DNA of 64,000 nucleotides from a bacterium (GTDB lineage: Bacteria; Krumholzibacteriota; Krumholzibacteriia; LZORAL124-64-63), in assembly GCA_031441465.1 (NCBI GenBank), contig JANOEP010000044.1, forward strand, positions 9,852 through 73,851, in the 5' to 3' direction. Positions 10,657 through 20,220 of the stretch are shown piece by piece (within the stretch, counting starts at the first letter, position 1; each line of letters starts with the position of its first letter). A program made the translations under genes and the position numbers. The notes under the pieces are model-generated. The model ran no database searches, was not told the DNA's origin, and was given only the letters and a program-made list of their open reading frames with translations.

Positions 10657-11250
10657 ATGCGATGCCGGATCCCCTCCACTCTGGTCCTGGTCGTCGCCCT
10701 GCTGACCGCGGCGAGCGGCGATCTGGCGCAGACCGACGCCTTCTGCATCAGCGAAAACGAGACGGGAACCGGAGGTTGGGGTTGCACCAACATCCCCGCC
10801 TTCGTGCCGACGAACATTTACCTGTGCCTGCTCCACCCGAGCGGGGAACAGGTCTTGGCCTGGGAGGCCAGGATCATTCACGACAACGCCACCGCCATGG
10901 TCGGCTCCTGGGTGGTCAACGGCGTGGATTCCCACCCGGACGCCGAGAATTTCGTCGTCACCTGCGTGGTCTCACCGCTGTATCCCAACCCGCAGGATAT
11001 CGTCGTGCTGGGCTCGATGCAGGTTATCGTCCTGAATCCGAGCGAGCGCATCGAGTTCTTCATCGGCCCGATTCCCGGATCCACGAACTTCCCCGCAGGC
11101 ACGCCCGGTTACGTCCACACGATGGGCATCAACACGCCCGCCACCGTGTGTAGCGGCGAATACGCTTTGCCGGTGTTCCACATCAACATGTGCCTCATGG
11201 ACGCGGTGGAGGAAGCCGACTGGGGTGCGATCAAGGCGCTGTACGAGTGA
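10657..11250 (+). CDS. Secreted protein (paralog of the N-terminal domain of 11388..13715) with WGxxKxxY tail
   Basis: GGGAG RBS, signal peptide, 'FVPTNIYLCLL...AWEARI...GPIPGS..FP.GTPGYVHT', ends ADWGAIKALYE. Confidence 0.8.
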   Translation: MRCRIPSTLVLVVALLTAASGDLAQTDAFCISENETGTGGWGCTNIPAFVPTNIYLCLLHPSGEQVLAWEARIIHDNATAMVGSWVVNGVDSHPDAENFVVTCVVSPLYPNPQDIVVLGSMQVIVLNPSERIEFFIGPIPGSTNFPAGTPGYVHTMGINTPATVCSGEYALPVFHINMCLMDAVEEADWGAIKALYE

Positions 11251-11387
11251 TGAGCGCTTCGTGCCGGCAAGGCCGTGATTCCCGCCGGCGTGCCGGCGTG
11301 CGTCCACCCGCGCCCGCTCAATCCGAGCGGCAACCAGATCATGGTCCTCGATGCCAGATTCACCGATCCCCATCACGGAGGCCATCC

Positions 11388-13715
11388 ATGAGCATGTCCA
11401 CCCGGTTCTACCTGACGATCTTCGCCGCCCTGCTCGCCCTGTCCGGCGCCGCGCTGGCGCAGCAGGACGCCTTCTGCATCTGCGTCGACCCGACGGATCC
11501 CGCCGAATGCGGCGGCAACGCCGACATCCCGATGTTCGTGCCGACGAACATCTACCTGTGCCTGCTCAATCCGAGCGGCAGCCCGGTCCGGGCCTGGGAG
11601 GCCCGGATCACGAACACCAACCAGTCGGGCATGATCGGAACCTGGGTGATGTCCGGGCTGGACGTCGACAACGACCCCATGGACTTCGTCATCGGCAACG
11701 GCGCCTCGCCGCTGGTCCCGAATGCGCAGGATGTCGTCGTGATGGGCTCGATGCAGGTCATCATCCTGAACGCCAGCACGCCCGTCGAATTCTATATCGG
11801 GCCGATCCCGGGTTCGGGCACGTTCCCGGGCGGCACCCCGGGCTACGTGCACACGCTAGGGTTCAACACGCCTGCGACCGTGTGCGGCGACGACTTCACA
11901 CAACCCGTCTTCAGCATCAACGGCGACAACCCGCCGCCCTTCGAGGACTCCTTCACCGTGACCATCTCGTCGACGCTCGGCGCCTACCACGACTTGAACA
12001 ACCTCGCCGGCATGGAAGCGAGCGCGACGGACGGCCTGGACCCAAACCTCGATATCCCCGAGCCGCCGGCCCCGCCGGCGGGATTCGCGTACCTGACCTT
12101 CCCGCATCCCGAGTGGGCCTCGCCTCTGGGTGACAATTTCCGCACGGATTACAGGGCGACCTACGTGCCGGCGACCACGACCAAGACCTGGTCGCTGCAT
12201 TTCACGACCGACCAGAGCGGCGTCGCGATGCTCGACTTCCAGCCGAGCTTCGACCAGACCGCGAACTGGGAGCTGACGTTGATCGACCTCGATTCCGGCG
12301 AGGTCGTGGATCTCTGGGGCGCAGGACTCGACTACTCGTTCAACGCCATGCCGGGTCAAGTCCGCCACCTGGAGCTGCTGGTGGGCCCGACCCAGATCCC
12401 GCCCCTCAGCCCAACGTCCAGCCTCCTGCCGACCGGTTGGTCTCTGGTGGGCATGCCCCTGCTGCCGGACGCGCCGGGCACCGTGGGCTCGGTGCTGCTG
12501 GACGACATCGTCAGCCCCACGTTCGTCTACAGCCACACGGTGAGCTCCGGCTACCAGCAGCAGTTGCCGAACGACGTCATGCGGCAGGGCAAGGGCTACT
12601 GGGTGGGCGCGAACAACCCCTTCACCTGGACGATGGAGGGGCAGCGCGACCTCAACGGCGCCTCGTTGGTCCTGAACAGCGGCTGGAACCTGCTCGGCGC
12701 GCCGTTGTGGACCGCCATGAGTATCGACGACATCAAGGTCGACTACCAGGGCACCCGTTACGACTACGCGACGGCGGTCCAGATGGGCCTCGTCGGCAGC
12801 TACGTCTATTTCTACCAGACCTCGACGGGCACCTACGTGACCCGGTCCACCCTCCATCCCTGGCACGGTTACTGGGTACCCGCCTACATGAGCGGCGTCA
12901 GCCTGTGGTTCCACTACACCAACATCGGCCCCGACAAATCCACCCCGGCCGCCCCGATCTTCGAACCGAACGACCTGAACTGGCGCCTGAGCCTCGGCCT
13001 CGAGGGCAACCCCGAGTCCGTGGTCGTCGGTCGCCTCGAGAAGGCCGCCGACGGCTTCGACGCCGCCTGGGACCAGCCCCGCCCGCCGCGCGCGCCGGTC
13101 GCCGCGTCCCGGCCGGAGCTGTGGCTCGACGGTTCGGCCCTGCACCTCAGCACCGGCGACCAGCTCACGTCCGACTACCGCGCCGCGACGGACGCGGACG
13201 TGGCCTGGGACCTCGTCGTCACCGCGCCCGCGCCTGGGCCGGTCACGCTGCGCTGGGACGCCGCGGAGTGGGGCGGCCGCGAAGATCTGCAGCTGTACCT
13301 GCCCCACCAGAACCGCGTCGCGGTGATGTCGATGCGCGAGCGGTCGAGCTTGACACTCGATGTGGGCGCCGCGCCGATGATCGTGCGCCTGCGCACGCCG
13401 GACCTGTCGACCGGCGCGCCGGAGGTTGTCGCGGGCAGTTATCTGCTGCGCGCGGTGCCGAACCCGTTCAACCCGCGCACCGAGATCGTGATGACGCTGC
13501 CGCGCGCCGGCAAGGCCGAGGTGCGGGTCCACGACGTTCTCGGTCGCGTGGTGAAGCGCTTCGCGGTCGACGCGGCCGTGGCCGGGGAGAACCGCGTCAC
13601 CTGGCTGGGCACCGACGATCGCGGCCGTGACGTGGCCAGCGGCGCGTACTTCGCGGCGCTCTACGTGGATGGGGCCGCGTCGGGCGCGGTGGTCCGGTTG
13701 AGCCTGGTGCGCTGA
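11388..13715 (+). CDS. Secreted multidomain protein with C-terminal FlgD-Ig/T9SS-like domain
   Basis: GGAGG RBS and signal peptide. N-domain closely similar to 10657..11250. Two 'ATDGLD..DIPEPP' / 'AADGFD..DQPRPP' modules, GWSLVG/GWNLLG repeats, PNPFNP CTD. Confidence 0.85.
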   Translation: MSMSTRFYLTIFAALLALSGAALAQQDAFCICVDPTDPAECGGNADIPMFVPTNIYLCLLNPSGSPVRAWEARITNTNQSGMIGTWVMSGLDVDNDPMDFVIGNGASPLVPNAQDVVVMGSMQVIILNASTPVEFYIGPIPGSGTFPGGTPGYVHTLGFNTPATVCGDDFTQPVFSINGDNPPPFEDSFTVTISSTLGAYHDLNNLAGMEASATDGLDPNLDIPEPPAPPAGFAYLTFPHPEWASPLGDNFRTDYRATYVPATTTKTWSLHFTTDQSGVAMLDFQPSFDQTANWELTLIDLDSGEVVDLWGAGLDYSFNAMPGQVRHLELLVGPTQIPPLSPTSSLLPTGWSLVGMPLLPDAPGTVGSVLLDDIVSPTFVYSHTVSSGYQQQLPNDVMRQGKGYWVGANNPFTWTMEGQRDLNGASLVLNSGWNLLGAPLWTAMSIDDIKVDYQGTRYDYATAVQMGLVGSYVYFYQTSTGTYVTRSTLHPWHGYWVPAYMSGVSLWFHYTNIGPDKSTPAAPIFEPNDLNWRLSLGLEGNPESVVVGRLEKAADGFDAAWDQPRPPRAPVAASRPELWLDGSALHLSTGDQLTSDYRAATDADVAWDLVVTAPAPGPVTLRWDAAEWGGREDLQLYLPHQNRVAVMSMRERSSLTLDVGAAPMIVRLRTPDLSTGAPEVVAGSYLLRAVPNPFNPRTEIVMTLPRAGKAEVRVHDVLGRVVKRFAVDAAVAGENRVTWLGTDDRGRDVASGAYFAALYVDGAASGAVVRLSLVR

Positions 13716-13733
13716 GGCGCCGGGTGGTCGTTG

Positions 13734-13773
13734 GGCGGCGGGGCAGCTGCGGCTTGTCCCGCCGCCGTCTTTT
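13734..13773 (+). terminator. Intrinsic terminator
   Basis: GGCGGCGGG...CCCGCCGCC stem followed by GTCTTTT. Confidence 0.55.
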
Positions 13774-13816
13774 CAGTAAGGTGATCCCGGACCGCCACCG
13801 CCCCGCCGCCGGAGGG

Positions 13817-14419
13817 ATGCCGATGCGTTTCCCGCGCCCCGCGCCTGCCCTGTTCTTCGCCCTGATGCTCGGCGCCGCCGCCGCCGCGTCGGCCCAGTCC
13901 GACGTGTTCTGCGTTTGCACCGACGCCACGACCGGAACCTGCGGCGGGAACCTCGAGGTGAGCGTGCCGGGGTCGTGCACCGTCTATCTGGTGCTCGCGC
14001 AGCCGTCGGGGTCGCCGGTGATGGCCTGGGAGGCCCGGGTGACCGTCGAGGGGTCGGCCACCTACGTGGGCGGCTGGACGCTGGCGGCCGGCTTGAACGT
14101 GGGCAGCGGCGACAACTACACCGTCGGACTGCAACTGGGCGGCCTGAACGGCCTGATGCCCAACGGCGTCGGCTTGGTGCCGCTGATGTCCATGACCGTG
14201 ATGCTGCTGGGGGAGGGCCCGCTGCTCTTCAAGGTGGGGCCCGTGCCCGGCTCGGCCAGTTTCCCGGACGGGACGCCCGGCTACCTGGTGGGCGCGGACA
14301 CCCTGAAGCCGGCGTCGGTCTGCAGCGGCTCTTTCGACCGGGCCGTGTTCACCCTGAACAACGGCGACGCCGACGAGCAAGGCACCTGGGGCGAGGTCAA
14401 AACCCTGTATTCGCACTGA
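13817..14419 (+). CDS. Secreted protein (same domain family as 10657..11250) with WGxxKxxY tail
   Basis: GGAGGG RBS (start 13817 or 13823), signal peptide, 'PSGSPVMAWEARV', 'GPVPGSASFPDGTPGY', ends GTWGEVKTLYSH. Confidence 0.8.
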   Translation: MPMRFPRPAPALFFALMLGAAAAASAQSDVFCVCTDATTGTCGGNLEVSVPGSCTVYLVLAQPSGSPVMAWEARVTVEGSATYVGGWTLAAGLNVGSGDNYTVGLQLGGLNGLMPNGVGLVPLMSMTVMLLGEGPLLFKVGPVPGSASFPDGTPGYLVGADTLKPASVCSGSFDRAVFTLNNGDADEQGTWGEVKTLYSH

Positions 14420-14543
14420 TTCCGCTGCCCGCCACCCGCTCCGGACCCGCCGATCACAGCATTTTCTGCTCAACCGTGAGAACCGCCGGCCGATCATCTC
14501 CTGCGATCGCCCAGAAAGGCATGTCCTCAACCGCGAGCGAGCC

Positions 14544-15185
14544 ATGCAAGAAACCAACGTCGCCGTTGCCGTCCCCGCCTTCACCGGCGCGGCCCCCGAT
14601 TCCCTGCTCGACGTCTTCCAGGACCAGATCCGTCCCGGCGGGAGGATCCTCGACTTCGGGTCCGGCGACGACCGCCGTGACCTGTACCTGGCTTCTGAGG
14701 GTTACCGCGTCACCGTACTCGCCGGGTCCGCCGAGGCCGAGTCGCGCCTGAACGAGGCCGCGGCCGCCGACGGCCTGGACCTCGTCGCGCTTCGGGAATC
14801 GTTCCTGGAGCACGATCCCGGGACGCAGCCGTACGACGCGCTGCTCTGCTACGACCTGCTGCCGCGCCTGTCGCGCACGGACAACGCCAGCCTGCTGCAC
14901 CGCATCTTCAGCTGGACGGCGCACGGGTCGCTGCTGTTCCTGACGGCACGGCACGTGGACGACACGTCCTACGACGAGGTGAGCGCGACGTGGGAGAAGG
15001 CGGGCCTGCACAGCTTCCGCGGTCCGGACGGCGAGTACCGCACCTACCTGGCGCGCGGCGTCGTGCGCAACCTGTTCCGTGGCTGGAACACGCTGCACCA
15101 TCGGGAATCCATGTCGCTGGTCGACGGGAGTGCGGCCGATGGACCCAGGGCGGGGAGGATCGAACTCGTGGCGAGGCGCCGCTAG
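14544..15185 (+). CDS. Class I SAM-dependent methyltransferase (TehB-like)
   Basis: Motif I 'RILDFGSGDDR', post-II 'YDALLC'. Confidence 0.7.
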   Translation: MQETNVAVAVPAFTGAAPDSLLDVFQDQIRPGGRILDFGSGDDRRDLYLASEGYRVTVLAGSAEAESRLNEAAAADGLDLVALRESFLEHDPGTQPYDALLCYDLLPRLSRTDNASLLHRIFSWTAHGSLLFLTARHVDDTSYDEVSATWEKAGLHSFRGPDGEYRTYLARGVVRNLFRGWNTLHHRESMSLVDGSAADGPRAGRIELVARRR

Positions 15186-15538
15186 ATCAGCGGCGCCCCG
15201 CCACGTCAACCCCCACCTGCACTGCTGGAGCGTGAGACTGGGAAGGCCGGAACTCCCCCGAATGGCCCTCGCCCGTAGGTCATTCTCGAAAAAGGAGTTC
15301 CGGCCAAGGATGTGAAGGAGGTTCGGGTCGCGACTCGCTAGCGCTTCGCACAGTGTTTCGGATACTGCCCGCAATCGAATGGTATGCCCCCCACACCCAC
15401 TCCGACATCATCTATAAGCACGAACCCGGCGGGACGTTGCATGGCTTCGGCGGTTTTCCGCAATATTTTCACATTCCGGTATCCCGATAAGTGTATGCTA
15501 TGAAAAGCCCTCGCCCGGCCGACGGGAGAATGAAGCGC

Positions 15539-15724
15539 ATGATCAAGATCGTCGAACCAGACCACCGCCCCGAGATCCTCACCCCGCGTGCCGACGGGAC
15601 GTGCGGTTGCTCGTGTGCCTGTAATTGTGCGACTGGAGATCAGGCCGGGAACCAGTCGATCAAATCACCCAAGAGCGATATCATCTCATTTCCGGTCATC
15701 CACGGGAAGCGTGACGGCGCCTGA
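15539..15724 (+). CDS. Putative Cys-rich RiPP precursor peptide (CGCSCACNC core), 61 aa
   Basis: GGGAG RBS 10 nt before ATG 15539. Sequence MIKIVEPDHRPEILTPRADGTCGCSCACNCATGDQAGNQSIKSPKSDIISFPVIHGKRDGA. Overlaps the radical SAM start. Confidence 0.72.
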   Translation: MIKIVEPDHRPEILTPRADGTCGCSCACNCATGDQAGNQSIKSPKSDIISFPVIHGKRDGA

Positions 15725-17162
15725 GTCCGGCCGCCCGCTCTGCCGGGTCTTCCAGCACGGGGGCCGGAGCTATGTCTACGACGCCGGGGCTGATCAGGTC
15801 GTCGAGGTGTCGGCGTCCGTCGCCTCGTGGCTGGATGCAGCGATGTCCTATCCGGACTGGATCGCCGCCGATGCCGCCGTCGAGGCAGAGATCGTGCAGG
15901 CCCGCGTCGTGCACGGCCTGTTCCGCACCGGGCGCCCGCGCCTGGTCGCGAAGCGATCCGGTCGGAATCGCGCCGCCGACGATGCCGGCCGCATCTCACA
16001 AATGACCCTCACCCTGGACGAGCGCTGCAACCTGCGCTGCGCCTACTGCCCGCACACGCTCGCCGCCCCCTGGACGCGACCTCACGGCGAGCGGCGGATG
16101 TCGGAAGATACGGTGCGGGCCGCTGTGGATCTGTTCCTGGCGTGTGCGGACGGCGGTTCGCCGTCGATATCGCTTTACGGCGGCGAGCCCCTGCTGGCGC
16201 CGGGACTCGTCCGCGTGGTCGCGGACCTGGTCCACGCGGCACGGCGGCCCGGAATCCGGATCATCCTGGACACCAACGGCACCCTGCTCGATGACGCGAT
16301 GGTGGAGATCGTCGCCGTACGGGGTCTGTACCTGCAGGTGAGCTTGGATGGTCCGGCGCCGATCCACGACCGCTGGCGCACCACGGTCGACGGCCGTCCC
16401 ACGCACGCCGCGGTGATGGCGGGCCTGGAACGCCTGCTCGCTCGGGATCCCGCAGCGGCAGGCCGGTTGCAGTTCCAGGCGACGCTGGCGCCCGGCAGCG
16501 ATATGCTGGAGGCCGACGCCTTCTTCGTGGAGCTGGGCCGCGAGTTGGGCCTCGCCGACATGTCGGTGGGTGCGTCCTATGCGGACATCCCAGGGATGGT
16601 CGAGGCCGACCCGACCGCGACCTCGCCGGAAGCGGGCGGGTGGGAGCGGGCACGCGCCGTGTACGTCGAGGCCTGCTCGTCTGGTCGCCACGCCGACTTG
16701 GGGCCGCTGGTGCAAGCTTGGTTCGACGGCCCCCTGATCCGTTTCTACCACCGCGAAGCAGAACCGTTGGCCTCGACCTTCCGGCCGGGCGGCGTCTGCA
16801 CGCCCGGTCTGCGCCGCCTCCACGTTTGCAGCGACGGCACGCTGCAGCCTTGCGAACGCGTGGGCACGGCGTTCGGCCTCGGCGACGTGCGGCGCGGGTT
16901 CGATCTCGACGCCGTGGACCGGCTCGAGCAGGCGTGGTTCGATGCCCTCGGCGGCCGGTGCGCGGACTGCTGGGCGCTTCGCCACTGCAGCCTCTGCTTC
17001 ACGGCGATGATCGACAGGGAGTCGGGCTGCGTGGGCGCCGTGCCGGAATCGGCTTGCCAAGACGTCAGGAAGGAGTTCGAAGGCACGCTGCGCTTGTGGG
17101 TGGAGCTGCTGGCGCGCAACCCGCGGGCCCTGGATCACCTGAGGGGCAGCAGCGTCAGTTGA
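15711..17162 (+). CDS. Radical SAM/SPASM peptide maturase (CcpM-like)
   Basis: CNLRCAYC, YGGEPLL, VSLDGP. SPASM 'GGVCTPGLRRLHV..DG.LQPCERV...CADCWALRHCSLC...C'. N-terminal RRE-like segment 'YVYDAGADQVVEVS'. Confidence 0.88.
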   Translation: MTAPESGRPLCRVFQHGGRSYVYDAGADQVVEVSASVASWLDAAMSYPDWIAADAAVEAEIVQARVVHGLFRTGRPRLVAKRSGRNRAADDAGRISQMTLTLDERCNLRCAYCPHTLAAPWTRPHGERRMSEDTVRAAVDLFLACADGGSPSISLYGGEPLLAPGLVRVVADLVHAARRPGIRIILDTNGTLLDDAMVEIVAVRGLYLQVSLDGPAPIHDRWRTTVDGRPTHAAVMAGLERLLARDPAAAGRLQFQATLAPGSDMLEADAFFVELGRELGLADMSVGASYADIPGMVEADPTATSPEAGGWERARAVYVEACSSGRHADLGPLVQAWFDGPLIRFYHREAEPLASTFRPGGVCTPGLRRLHVCSDGTLQPCERVGTAFGLGDVRRGFDLDAVDRLEQAWFDALGGRCADCWALRHCSLCFTAMIDRESGCVGAVPESACQDVRKEFEGTLRLWVELLARNPRALDHLRGSSVS

Positions 17163-17859
17163 GCGGGGTGCCCTGATGGAAGGTGATCACGCCGCATTCC
17201 GGCACGTCGAACTGCCAGGACGAGAACGCCACCGGCGTGCCGTTGAGCATGATGGTGTCCATTGGCGCGGGACCCAGGGTGCCCCGGTAGGCCGCCAGGC
17301 CGATCTCCCGGTAGCGGGGGCTCTGGAAGAACTCGCGGAGCTGCTCGTTGTCCTCGATCTCGCCGATGCTGACCGGGAAGGTGTTCGCTTTGTCCACTCC
17401 GTACGCCAAGTGGTATTCCGTTTTCCCCTTGTACGACAGGCCGAAAGCATGGGCCAAGGGCAACAGCCCCTCTAGGTATGACTGCTGCAGCTCTTCCATC
17501 GCCAGTCGTAGAGACTCGAGTTCTGCGCTGGCGTAGGGCACGCGCACCCCGTCGGCGGTGCTGCGACTGAATCCGAAGGAGGCCTTGGCGTCCCGGGTGG
17601 ACGAAAGGGATGCTGTACCGTCATCGTGGATCTGCATGACGTCGAGACGGAGCCCCGTTGATTCCAGCGCCGGCTGATTGGCGAAGGTCGCGCCCAGCAT
17701 CACCGCCACGATCGCGAACGCGACCAGGGGTCGCGAGGTCCGCCGGTCGCTGATACGCCTCCGCAGTTCCGCCCGCAGCGCCTCCTTGTGCTCGGAGTCG
17801 AGCCGGGGCGAGATGCGCGTCCCGCTCAGCCTGCGTTCGAGATCGTCGTGGTCAGACAT
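17155..17859 (-). CDS. Putative anti-sigma factor (single TM, extracytoplasmic C-domain)
   Basis: Start overlaps the ECF stop. Short charged N-terminus, then TM 'PLVAFAIVAVMLGATFA'. Confidence 0.6.
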   Translation of the reverse strand: MSDHDDLERRLSGTRISPRLDSEHKEALRAELRRRISDRRTSRPLVAFAIVAVMLGATFANQPALESTGLRLDVMQIHDDGTASLSSTRDAKASFGFSRSTADGVRVPYASAELESLRLAMEELQQSYLEGLLPLAHAFGLSYKGKTEYHLAYGVDKANTFPVSIGEIEDNEQLREFFQSPRYREIGLAAYRGTLGPAPMDTIMLNGTPVAFSSWQFDVPECGVITFHQGTPLN

Positions 17860-18523
17860 GCCGGTCGTTCCCATCCCAGTGTTTGTCCCGGCCGTCCTCC
17901 ATGGCGCCGCGCAGCTTGCCGAGCGTGCGGTGCAGCCGGGACTTCATGGTGCCCTCGGGGACGCCGTAGATCGCGGCGATCTCCTTCACGGGCAGGTCTT
18001 CGTAGATGCGCAGGGCGAGCCAGTTCCGTTCTTCGTGCGTCAGTTCGCTGAGATACCGGTCGAGCCGGAAGCGCTGCCGGGCCTTTTCCAGCTTCAGGGC
18101 GGGACTCGACTCGCTGTCCGCGAGCACTTCCTCGCCCAGGACGTTCAGGGGCGTGAACCAGGACTGCTGCCGTTGCGCCAGCTTGAAGTGGCGGTTCAGC
18201 CGGTTGATCGCGATCCGATAGAGCCACGCCTGGAACGGTTTGCTCTGCCACCGGAACTGCCACAGCCGGCTCAGGGCGAGGTGGAACACGTCGGCGGTCA
18301 GGTCCTGGGCGTCCACCCGGTTCAGGAGCCGGTTGTAGAGGAAACGAAAGATCCGATCGTAGTAATACTCATACAAGTAGTCGAACGCATCGGCATCGAT
18401 CTTGGCGCTCTGGATGCGGAGCCGCTCGTACTCGAGCCGCTGGGGATCGTCCACCGCGGCCGTCTTCGGATCGAAGACAACCGCAAGCCCCGGCCGCAGC
18501 CCAGGATGTTCCTCTCGTGCCAT
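17852..18523 (-). CDS. ECF RNA polymerase sigma factor
   Basis: 'DAQDLTADVF', 'FQAWLYRIAIN', 'EIAAIYGVPEGTMKSRLHR'. Start approximate. Confidence 0.9.
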   Translation of the reverse strand: MAREEHPGLRPGLAVVFDPKTAAVDDPQRLEYERLRIQSAKIDADAFDYLYEYYYDRIFRFLYNRLLNRVDAQDLTADVFHLALSRLWQFRWQSKPFQAWLYRIAINRLNRHFKLAQRQQSWFTPLNVLGEEVLADSESSPALKLEKARQRFRLDRYLSELTHEERNWLALRIYEDLPVKEIAAIYGVPEGTMKSRLHRTLGKLRGAMEDGRDKHWDGNDRHV

Positions 18524-18675
18524 TACAATGACGATGTCCCGGATCGGTTGCCACAAATGAGCGGTCGCGGGGGCGGGTTCTCGATTTGCCGCCCGGTGAC
18601 GACTCTGCTACGTTCTCGGTTGAATATACCACATCGGGCGCCGTCGTGGCGCGTCGTTCCCCGAAAGGCCCCGTC

Positions 18676-20220
18676 ATGGCCGAGCTTCCCGCCAGGAACC
18701 TCAAGGCGTTCATCGCCTTGCTCGAGCAGGCCGGCGACCTGGTGCGCGTCCGGGAGCCCGTCGATCCCGTCCTGGAGGCCGGCGAGATCGCCGACCGCTT
18801 CGTCAAGGCCGGCGAGGGCCCCGCCCTGCTCTTCGAGGACCCGCGCCCCGGCCGCTGGAGCGAGCGGGCCGGCCGGACGGCCCGGGCCACGGCGTCCGAC
18901 GGCCGGCCGGTGCCCCTGGCCATGAACCTGTTCGCCTCGCGCCGCCGCATGGCCTGGGCCCTGGGCTGCGAGTCGTTGGAGGAGGCCGTCGCCCGGGTGC
19001 GCGAGCCCCTGGAACTCGCTCCCCCTGAGGGGCTTTGGGAGAAGTTGAAGCTGCTGGGCAAGGCCCGCGACTGGAGCGCCGGCCTGCCCCGCTCGGTGGC
19101 CGGCGGACCCTGCCAGGAGGTCGTGGTCCGGGGCGAGGAGCTGGACCGCCGCGGCATCCTGGACCTGATGCCCGTGCTGACGACTTGGCCGCAGGACGGC
19201 GGTCCCTTCATCACCCTGCCGCTGGTCATCACCCGCAACCCCGAGACCGGCCGGCGCAACATCGGCATGTACCGGCTGCAGGTCTTCGACGGCCGCACCA
19301 CCGGCATGCACTGGCAGCTGCACAAGACCGGCGCCGACCACTACCGCGCCTACGAACGGCGCTGCGAGCGCATGCCCGTCTGCGTGGCGCTCGGCGGGCC
19401 GCCGTCGCTGACCTACGCCGCGACGGCGCCGCTGCCGCCGGAGATCGACGAGTCGATGTTCGCGGGCTTCCTGCAGGGCGCCCCGATCGCCTGGACCAAG
19501 GCCCTCACCTGCGACCTGGAAGTGCCGGCCGAGGCCGACTTCGTGCTGGAGGGCTACGTCGATCCCGGCGAGCGCCGCCGCGAGGGGCCGTTCGGCGACC
19601 ATACCGGTTTCTACACCCTGCCCGAGGAGTTCCCGGTCTTCCACGTGACCGCGATCACCTCGCGCCGCGATCCCGTCTACCCGTCGACCATCGTGGGCAT
19701 CCCGCCCATGGAGGACAAGTGGCTGGGTTGGGCCACCGAACGCCTGTTCCTGCCGCTGATGCAGAAGCCGCTGCCCGAGGTCGTCGACTACCACCTGCCG
19801 CCGGCCGCCTGCTTCCACAACCTGGCGATCGTGGCGATCCGCAAGCAGTACCCCGGGCACGCGCGCAAGGTCTGCCACGCGCTGTGGGGGATGGGCCAGA
19901 TGATGTTCTGCAAGACCATCGTGGTGGTCGACGCCGAGGTCGACGTCCACGACCCATCCGGCGTGCTGTGGCGCGTGACCAACTCCATCGACCCCAAGCG
20001 CGACACGTTCTTCGTCGACGGGCCCGTCGACCACCTCGACCACGCCGTGAACGTCCAGTTCCTGGGCGGCAAGATGGGGATCGACGCCACCGCGAAGTGG
20101 GAGGGCGAGGACGGCTACCGGCGCGAGTGGCCGCCGATCGTGCGCATGGACGACGCGGTCAAGCTCGATGTCGCGGAGCGCTGGCGCGACCTCCTGGCAC
20201 AGGCGGGGCGGCAGAAGTGA
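18676..20220 (+). CDS. ubiD: UbiD-family decarboxylase (menaquinone futalosine pathway, MqnL-like)
   Basis: 'WPQDGGPFIT', 'NIGMYRLQ', 'EGPFGDHTGFY', 'KMGIDAT'. Confidence 0.93.
   Translation: MAELPARNLKAFIALLEQAGDLVRVREPVDPVLEAGEIADRFVKAGEGPALLFEDPRPGRWSERAGRTARATASDGRPVPLAMNLFASRRRMAWALGCESLEEAVARVREPLELAPPEGLWEKLKLLGKARDWSAGLPRSVAGGPCQEVVVRGEELDRRGILDLMPVLTTWPQDGGPFITLPLVITRNPETGRRNIGMYRLQVFDGRTTGMHWQLHKTGADHYRAYERRCERMPVCVALGGPPSLTYAATAPLPPEIDESMFAGFLQGAPIAWTKALTCDLEVPAEADFVLEGYVDPGERRREGPFGDHTGFYTLPEEFPVFHVTAITSRRDPVYPSTIVGIPPMEDKWLGWATERLFLPLMQKPLPEVVDYHLPPAACFHNLAIVAIRKQYPGHARKVCHALWGMGQMMFCKTIVVVDAEVDVHDPSGVLWRVTNSIDPKRDTFFVDGPVDHLDHAVNVQFLGGKMGIDATAKWEGEDGYRREWPPIVRMDDAVKLDVAERWRDLLAQAGRQK

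Follow-up and report, generated by a model that had tools for sequence, protein, structure and literature searches.

Does the 61-residue, cysteine-rich open reading frame (ORF) that runs into a radical S-adenosylmethionine (rSAM) gene in a Krumholzibacteriota genome encode the precursor of a RiPP, a peptide made by ribosomes and modified after translation, and if so, to what kind of system does the pair belong? The stretch of DNA analysed here, hereafter the window, comprises 64,000 nucleotides of contig JANOEP010000044.1 (assembly GCA_031441465.1, positions 9,852 to 73,851), and the two genes occupy positions 15539 to 17162 of it. An initial annotation of the letters had proposed a minimal RiPP locus with a CcpM-like maturase. 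We find that the pair belongs to a lineage-wide RiPP family of the sactipeptide/ranthipeptide type that has a precursor architecture of its own and is accompanied by a conserved pair of regulators. The explanation of the whole locus that we favour, and hold with moderate confidence, is a lineage-specific module in which the precursor leader docks on a RiPP recognition element (RRE) of the enzyme, the five core cysteines are turned into thioethers, and the system is genetically coupled to a dedicated extracytoplasmic function (ECF) sigma factor with a membrane partner.

The precursor gene (15539..15724, + strand) extends from an ATG at 15539 to a TGA stop codon at 15722-15724 and encodes MIKIVEPDHRPEILTPRADGTCGCSCACNCATGDQAGNQSIKSPKSDIISFPVIHGKRDGA (61 residues), laid out as an N-terminal leader beginning MIKIVEPDHRPE, a core with five alternating cysteines at residues 22, 24, 26, 28 and 30 (CxCxCxCxC), and a follower of 31 residues. 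Its ribosome-binding site (RBS), GGGAGA at 15524-15529, is placed 9 nt ahead of the ATG; immediately next to this RBS there is another ATG in the same frame, at 15530. All the features that had been read from the DNA at the outset, namely the ORF with its RBS, the alternating cysteines, the extension of about 30 residues and the 14-nt overlap with an rSAM gene bearing a SPASM signature, are present. High-GC genomes yield many spurious ORFs, and the frame might have arisen by chance in GC-rich DNA, with the enzyme acting on something else. The composition of the frame itself speaks for a gene, since GC content at third codon positions (GC3) is 0.72, whereas first and second positions have GC contents of 0.54 and 0.52. 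We compared six same-genus loci, from genome G000 and five of the six other genomes: a precursor ORF sits at the equivalent position upstream of the maturase gene in all six, the leader codons and the TGY cysteine codons vary at third positions only, and the overlap between the GTG of the maturase and the TGA of the precursor is preserved in the nucleotide alignment. Over the whole ORF, variable columns number 26, 28 and 39 at codon positions 1, 2 and 3. A six-frame translation of the entire 3.49-Mb genome contains CxCxCxCxC six times, and the other five matches are off-frame stretches rich in Arg, Cys, Pro and Trp.

Beyond the genus, 40 homologous loci were examined, covering 1.5 kb on each side of the maturase gene. 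At 29 of these there is at least one small ORF (43-71 aa where listed) with CxC, CxCxC or longer ladders, and the starts of these precursors have a leader motif in common, M-[IYF]-x-[KRE]-hydrophobic, ahead of differing cores; 11 loci have no such peptide. The codon pattern within the genus and the related peptides at other loci contradict the chance-frame reading, against which the enzyme-precursor complex model described below also speaks, and we give that reading almost no credence. The small ORF is a real, conserved gene that belongs with the adjoining enzyme, and the expectation that a conserved cysteine-rich ORF would accompany homologous rSAM genes is borne out. Among sequencing runs, the stretch is complete in only two, probably the source runs, whilst four further runs from four studies hold a small share of it in contigs that derive from relatives and show mostly 85-95% likeness. 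An RNA-library contig from a relative about 90% alike covers 15384-16020; because contigs cannot prove transcription, its level or its ends, we do not count such contigs as evidence of expression.

The 29 precursor-bearing loci fall into three types. Type A, found at 14 loci including the window, has its precursor upstream of the enzyme, with the leader M[IY]x[KR][IV][ED]P[GD]H and 3-6 (mostly five or six) alternating cysteines; the 13 relatives of the window have leader and ladder in common, and the ladder is followed by a conserved x-[ST]-G-D-x-A, in which Asp (+4) is kept by 10 of the 13 and Ala (+6) by 11. Type B (11 loci) has its precursor downstream of the enzyme, with a leader M[YF]xKL[DE], a CxCxC core and a C-terminus that is often Y[FWY]DING. 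Type C (4 loci) carries one to four tandem copies, whose leaders end in a GG- or GAG-type motif in L015, L019 and L022; the type C loci L019/L059 and L023/L066 adjoin an ATP-binding cassette (ABC) exporter, which in L059 has a C39 peptidase domain. We built a quick maximum-likelihood tree of 38 enzymes (L021 and L024, shorter than 430 aa, were dropped), in which 13 of the 14 type A rows form one clade (Shimodaira-Hasegawa-like approximate likelihood ratio test support, SH-aLRT, 95) and all 11 type B rows another (SH-aLRT 100). The precursor types require five changes on this tree, against a mean of 19.9 for shuffled labels, and a value as low was obtained in none of 200 shuffles; precursor types track enzyme clades.

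This family is concentrated in the lineage of the window. The maturase occurs in 60 of the 208 genomes of the phylum that were searched (E<=1e-40), with 54 of 90 genomes in the family of the window as compared to 5 of 117 from the phylum's remaining families. The hosts of the homologues are metagenome-assembled genomes labelled bacterium, Krumholzibacteriota or Latescibacteria rather than Clostridia, in agreement with the earlier remark that the lineage was an unexpected one. The precursor matches no curated family model: a NCBIfam scan of 27 of the 29 precursors at E<=10 gave none near any cut-off, and the sole match of the window precursor was a weak one to the StsA model NF045558 (E 0.016, 15.1 bits against a cut-off of 42). 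No paper on this peptide-maturase family was found by listings, and large rSAM compendia, for instance the dataset of PMC10288494, may list its proteins.

The maturase gene (15711..17162, + strand) starts with GTG and encodes 483 aa, its first 14 nt (15711-15724) overlapping the end of the precursor ORF. A longer open frame begins at 15588; as GC3 in the additional part (15588-15710) is only 0.46, against 0.86 in the gene proper, the GTG at 15711 is favoured as the start and the extension is taken as non-genic. The protein contains the rSAM cluster motif CNLRCAYC and the SPASM signature CTPGLRRLHVCSDGTLQPCERV. Across 66 homologues the rSAM cysteines C106, C110 and C113 (CX3CX2C) are invariant, as are G376 and seven SPASM cysteines (C363, C381, C417, C420, C426, C429 and C449), and the Pfam Radical_SAM model is matched at 56 bits (cut-off 29.5). 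An AlphaFold model of high confidence (pLDDT 91.2, pTM 0.90) has N-terminal strands at 11-16, 19-24 and 29-33 and helices at 35-46, 55-68 and 84-91, with pLDDT mostly above 76; as modelled, this N-terminal domain has the beta3-alpha3 topology of an RRE. A family profile matched CteB (5wgg) with E 3.2e-58, aligning query residues 6-480 to residues 3-446 of the chain and including the SPASM region through to the C-terminus, and the runners-up among solved structures were ChlB (1e-30) and anSME (4e-27). Foldseek gave the same order, with CteB ranked first (E 7e-20) at a structural-alignment identity of 16-17%. The enzyme is a full-length CteB/CcpM-like RRE-rSAM-SPASM protein, and the RRE-like N-terminus that the initial annotation had suspected is upheld by the homology to CteB, the modelled topology and the docking model, whereas Pfam hidden Markov models find none.

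Is the pair then an ordinary member of the CcpM / CLI_3235 bacteriocin system of clostridia and Paenibacillus? CcpM (TIGR04068) is indeed the top NCBIfam match and spans profile positions 2-453 of 462, followed by RumMC (146 bits), the lachnocin maturase (128), QhpD (110) and PapB (97), so that the best matches are all thioether or peptide maturases; a precursor of the Paenibacillus system, SacP23, is likewise cysteine-rich and 61 aa long, and its cluster holds an ECF sigma gene (PMC10731318). However, the CcpM match reaches 176.1 bits where the cut-off is 500, which makes the enzyme CcpM-like but no CcpM member. The likeness that had been claimed therefore stands and the membership does not. 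Nor is the precursor of the CLI_3235 type by profile: the TIGR04065 precursor model (cut-off 26 bits) has no match at E<=10 among the 27 precursors and none in the genome at E<=1. The partner families TIGR04066 and TIGR04069 were absent from a search of the own genome (96.8% complete), the blank for TIGR04066 being a weak one, as its control matched 0 of 14 control genomes, and no subtilase or ABC exporter is adjacent. Ordinary membership of that system is, in our judgement, very improbable.

How, then, might the enzyme of this lineage-specific module engage its precursor? A model of the enzyme-precursor complex scored 0.87 (individual runs 0.84, 0.89 and 0.87), whereas the best of three controls gave 0.00. 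Of 157 solved complexes 116 reach the mark used for this score, as do 2 of 215 mismatched pairs; these rates apply only roughly here because the alignments were our own. The runs share at least 26% of contacts, with a partner pLDDT of at least 42, and the confident contacts join peptide residues 1-9, 11 and 14 to enzyme residues 21, 29-34, 37, 60-64, 68 and 70 and to the C-terminal helix. The leader is thus modelled as lying on strand 3 of the RRE, a likeness to known complexes rather than a measure of binding. The RRE-leader entries SuiB-SuiA and ChlB with the ChlA leader are among the Foldseek matches, and the CteB-CteA complex has also been solved.

From these elements we propose the following course of maturation. 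The 61-residue precursor would be translated together with the maturase, with which its gene overlaps, and its leader (about residues 1-14, beginning M-hydrophobic-x-K/R-hydrophobic-D/E) would bind the fused RRE domain. The rSAM core and two SPASM auxiliary clusters would then join the cysteines from C22 to C30 to follower residues through intramolecular thioether bridges; for each of the five cysteines, the enzyme would abstract a hydrogen from an acceptor carbon and attach that carbon to the sulfur. Formation of thioethers is suggested by the relatives of the enzyme and by the invariant cysteine ladder, and the product is most likely a peptide with up to five cysteine-derived bridges, as judged from sequence. 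It might adopt a nested hairpin "ladder" of the kind seen in the CxCxC sactipeptide StsA, with C30 to D34 as the innermost rung, C28 to A36 as the next, and so onward; the conserved Asp and Ala at +4 and +6 after the last cysteine would be candidate acceptors. Their conservation at alternate positions fits a nested ladder without proving it, and the donor-acceptor spacing proposed for C30 and D34 is the same as that of PapB, CX3D.

The same precursor and enzyme could instead be joined by other chemistry, be it cysteine oxidation of the formylglycine type catalysed by anSME-like enzymes, carbon-carbon or carbon-oxygen cross-links, or epimerisation. In keeping with this, ChlB (E 1e-30) and anSME (E 4e-27) come directly after CteB among solved relatives (Foldseek ranks 4-11), the cyclophane-forming maturases YhhB, XyeB and FxsB appear in the NCBIfam list, and full-length similarity can mispredict rSAM function (PMC10288494). 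Yet thioether synthases give the strongest matches, whether families or solved structures are compared, the alternating cysteines, which are thioether donors, are the only feature strictly conserved across the 29 precursors, and the core is devoid of the aromatic residues that cyclophane formers need. We regard a different chemistry as unlikely.

What sets the locus apart from a minimal pair are the two genes that directly follow. The initial annotation's minimal locus holds insofar as no peptidase or exporter is adjacent, but the enzyme gene is followed by conserved genes for an ECF sigma factor and a putative anti-sigma factor. The ECF-type sigma-70 factor (17852..18556, - strand; Pfam Sigma70_r2 and r4) probably has its true start downstream of the TTG at 18556. 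It meets the ECF superfamily model (89.5 bits, cut-off 42.9), and its best NCBIfam match is the BldN-family ECF model (123 bits against a cut-off of 206); its homologues have an N-terminal extension in common, and the whole genome contains only six ECF homologues. The gene for the putative anti-sigma factor (17155..17874, - strand), a single-pass membrane protein of 239 aa, lies directly after the sigma gene with an overlap of 23 nt, and its 3' end overlaps the convergent 3' end of the rSAM gene by 8 nt (17155..17162). Since the gene ends overlap and no terminator was found between them, the convergent transcripts would be mutually antisense. An alignment of the membrane protein comprises a short N-terminal region, a hydrophobic helix and a C-terminal domain of about 170 aa, and its model has helices at 8-18, 27-44 and 48-65 (two short, one hydrophobic) followed by an alpha/beta C-terminal domain. 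Its position and topology suggest an anti-sigma role. A Foldseek search of the PDB gave no match at E<=0.001 (best E 0.011, to a sensor domain), and an atlas search returned hypothetical clusters only, with DUF4367, at 27% of one cluster, as a weak lead.

Across 21 wide loci, in which ORFs within 8 kb on each side were clustered, the sigma factor and the membrane protein of about 240 aa are the most widespread neighbours besides the maturase. The sigma cluster is present in 15 of the 21 and a tblastn homologue lies within 8 kb in 17, in 16 of these within about 1.4 kb; the membrane protein cluster is present in 13. The pair is convergent with the enzyme in loci of the window type, follows it in the same direction in L055, L060 and L067, and lies upstream in L065; altogether, the sigma gene is linked to the rSAM gene in at least four gene orders. 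This variation of gene order speaks for a functional tie and against frozen synteny, and the pair would most likely control the peptide module or answer to it. The association with the sigma gene, which the membrane-protein gene usually follows, is new in this analysis, as is the covarying hairpin upstream of the precursor that is described below.

A sigma-70 promoter and terminator scan of 15100-18800 returned no promoter and, within the rSAM gene, one terminator-like site, a yield not above that of shuffles. Regions upstream of the precursors contain a TTGCAY box and -10-like boxes, whilst those of the sigma genes contain an extended -10-like TGnTAT(A/G)AT. The TTGCAY box of the window (15437..15442, + strand) lies within the range of 90-111 nt before the precursor ATG and recurs at a similar distance in 11 of 13 type A loci. 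Before the sigma genes we also observed TGTGnTAT(A/G)(A/T)T boxes, e.g. at about 18590-18640 (- strand) in the window and in L052-L054, L057 and L063, and a conserved TAGCAGA and a GC hairpin follow the sigma -10-like boxes in the window, L048/L049, L052, L054 and L061. These boxes hint at the form of the promoter in this lineage.

The regulator pair also bears on what the peptide is for. It could serve metal or redox handling rather than antibiosis, as a cysteine-rich and perhaps partly cross-linked peptide kept in or near the cell at a level that the ECF sigma factor and the membrane sensor would couple to envelope or metal stress. The metallophore RiPP clusters of copper-binding bufferins and methanobactins have sigma/anti-sigma genes and offer an analogy; at the window type of locus the sigma factor and membrane protein are tightly linked, the core has five cysteines, and neither an exporter nor a leader peptidase is found in cis. 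The only Peptidase_C39 match in the genome (G000:C18:5887-6243, L073) falls in an ORF of at least 669 aa with a signal-peptide-like start and no obvious ABC exporter. Against such a role, neither a metal transporter nor another gene related to metals adjoins the locus, and the thiolate ligands would be lost if all cysteines became thioethers. Distant relatives fit secreted products, given the C39-peptidase ABC exporter with a GG-type leader in L059 and an S9 peptidase nearby in L057 and, by gene cluster, also in L063. A metal or redox function seems doubtful to us.

Upstream of the putative thioether-forming module lies a conserved two-stem hairpin, probably an RNA element (15238..15310, + strand; apical loop CCCTCGCCCG), between the methyltransferase gene described below and the precursor, about 240-280 nt before the precursor ATG. 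It folds with -34.9 kcal/mol (z -3.3). Searching with a covariance model built from ten seed loci recovers it at 12 loci, of which two lie outside the seed, and 12 of 20 pairs are changed on both sides, a score reached by none of 500 shuffles; this test favours structure, because the alignment was fitted to the model. The hairpin is unique in its own genome (87.7 bits, next 28.2), and an Rfam search of 14900-15800 at E<=1 gave no match to it, the only hits being microRNA-like chance matches to another hairpin. That other hairpin, a GC-rich element spanning the stop codon of the methyltransferase gene (15146..15224, -50.2 kcal/mol, z -3.5), has no U-tract after it. Closer to the precursor, a second copy of the motif CCTCGCCCG (15509..15529, + strand) lies directly ahead of the RBS at 15524-15529; it is conserved in the five genus loci shown and also in L042. 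In a fold of 15495-15545, CTCGCCCG pairs with CGGGAG at an energy no better than that of shuffles (z +0.42), and the second CCTCGCCCG copy, which can pair with the precursor RBS, may mask it.

The boldest account of these elements would make the locus a self-contained peptide module for signalling or stress and the founder of a new "cysteine-ladder" RiPP class from an uncultured phylum (leader, CxCxCxCxC core and follower) in which one enzyme makes a five-rung thioether hairpin, with a structured RNA upstream and the peptide serving as ligand or effector of its own ECF sigma factor and membrane sensor rather than as a secreted antibiotic. We consider this an improbable extension of the explanation that we favour.

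Several observations weigh against the favoured explanation of leader docking, thioether formation and regulatory coupling. The genomes compared are kin and not independent, and the locus counts, inflated in this way, overstate the independent support. Eleven of the 40 homologous loci are without a precursor by the patterns used (2 of them cut or partial), and the precursor-less loci include a clade in which rSAM, sigma and membrane protein genes follow in this order; a renewed search of these 11 and of five wide loci of the rSAM-sigma clade gave nothing convincing, the short cysteine-containing frames in the rSAM-sigma gap overlapping the sigma promoter region. The maturase falls under every curated NCBIfam cut-off, and Pfam detects neither PqqD/RRE nor SPASM in it at E<=0.1. 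Core and follower are not confidently placed in the complex model, whose favourable score may partly reflect memory, as RRE-leader complexes of relatives are solved. We infer the formation of thioethers, the number of bridges and their acceptors, and the follower is without the GxGxG acceptor motif of StsA. On the regulatory side, the membrane protein matches no Pfam or NCBIfam family, no anti-sigma domain and no known fold; the tie between sigma factor and peptide is drawn from co-occurrence, and no shared or ECF-type promoter was definable upstream of the precursor and sigma genes.

Further genes surround the module. Upstream lies a gene for a TehB-like S-adenosylmethionine-dependent methyltransferase (14544..15185, + strand; TehB E 2.7e-5), present in this place in all eight type A wide loci and in none of the 13 others. 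It could be a tailoring enzyme or a mere syntenic neighbour; because those eight loci have wider synteny in common (UbiD and other genes), no functional link is shown by this pattern. Upstream of the methyltransferase gene, 11190..13715 and 13724..14419 (+ strand) encode secreted proteins with paralogues in L048-L054, whose mature N-terminus reads ...Q[QS]D[VA][FM]C[IVF]C.D...CGGN and so contains another CxC motif; the larger, of 841 aa, has a FlgD_ig / type IX secretion system (T9SS)-type C-terminal domain. These CxC proteins have no evident link to the maturase and are found only in loci that share the wider synteny.

At other loci of the family we noted different company. Beside the type C maturase of L056 (G012:C4), three LanC-like genes and six interspersed ORFs, each about 74-87 aa long, form a repeated array (about 10800..17500) that looks like a lanthipeptide-type cluster, and the other flank holds CGGC-domain, Nitro_FeMo-Co-like and CbiA/ferredoxin genes. 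A PrkA / DUF444 / SpoVR set, i.e. a stress operon of the YeaG-YeaH-YcgB type, lies upstream of the maturase in the type B loci L057, L058, L063, L064 and L065; it is divergent and adjacent to the maturase in four of the five and lies beyond the sigma pair in L065, and L057 and L058 have a second PrkA-like gene. In L057 the sigma gene is followed by one for an S9 prolyl-oligopeptidase (Pfam), and in L063 an ORF of the same cluster occupies that place.

Taken together, this analysis extends rSAM/SPASM peptide maturation into an uncultured lineage of the Fibrobacterota-Chlorobiota-Bacteroidota (FCB) type. The precursor architecture, a strict alternating-cysteine core in mid-peptide with a long follower, is unusual, and the compact two-gene system would lend itself to expression and to solution by mass spectrometry. 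Coupling to a dedicated ECF sigma gene and its membrane-protein neighbour recurs and, since an ECF sigma gene is also described for the Paenibacillus CcpM cluster (PMC10731318), regulation may be an integral and overlooked part of the systems of this enzyme family. The family is at the same time one of many uncharacterised RiPP families, and its chemistry is what would be expected for the superfamily and not a surprise.

Where does the module stand among known systems? Its relation to CcpM/CLI_3235 is one of likeness in the enzyme, for which CcpM is the top-scoring named family over the full length, and in the length and cysteine content of the SacP23 precursor. In Paenibacillus polymyxa the SacP23 cluster comprises, besides the ECF sigma gene, an ABC transporter, TIGR04066, TIGR04069 and a subtilase, and the thioether bridges of SacP23 are assumed and have not yet been demonstrated (PMC10731318). 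By contrast, none of TIGR04066, TIGR04069, subtilase and ABC transporter is adjacent at the window locus, the enzyme scores 176 bits against the CcpM cut-off of 500, the cysteines form a strict mid-peptide CxCxCxCxC ladder ahead of a 31-residue follower, and the host is of an uncultured FCB-type group and not of the Bacillota.

With CteB, the maturase of the SCIFF (six cysteines in forty-five residues) peptide CteA (5wgg/5why), the window enzyme has in common, over the full length, an N-terminal RRE, an rSAM core and a SPASM domain with two auxiliary clusters, and its leader is likewise predicted to lie on the beta3 strand of the RRE. CteB forms a Cys-Thr gamma-thioether. The two differ in that structural-alignment identity is only 16-17%, the SCIFF maturase model TIGR03974 is matched at 65.7 bits against a cut-off of 425, and the window precursor is no SCIFF peptide.

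StsA offers the nearest parallel for the core, as its Cys2, Cys4 and Cys6 form nested hairpin sactionines with the alternating acceptors Gly15, Gly13 and Gly11, respectively, in Streptomyces sparsogenes (PMC10288494). Both peptides have alternating core cysteines, and the StsA model is the sole NCBIfam precursor model with any match to the window peptide (E 0.016); the match amounts to 15 bits against a cut-off of 42, and the window peptide has five cysteines, with CxCxC but no GxGxG. The enzymes are unlike: StsB is MftC-like and works with a separate RRE protein, StsC, whilst the window enzyme is CteB/CcpM-like with a fused RRE.

For the regulator pair, the clusters of microbisporicin (MibX/MibW), methanobactin and the bufferins provide the parallel, each with an ECF sigma/anti-sigma pair in a RiPP cluster. 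Like these, the window has an ECF sigma factor and a membrane partner beside a RiPP precursor and its maturase, but those clusters belong to the lanthipeptide, MbnBC and MNIO (an oxidative enzyme that depends on multinuclear non-haem iron) classes with enzymes to match, and at the window locus the link is drawn from co-occurrence with a membrane protein in which no anti-sigma domain is recognisable. In sum, the module, a member of no curated family tested, works like a sacti- or ranthipeptide system of the CteB/CcpM type.

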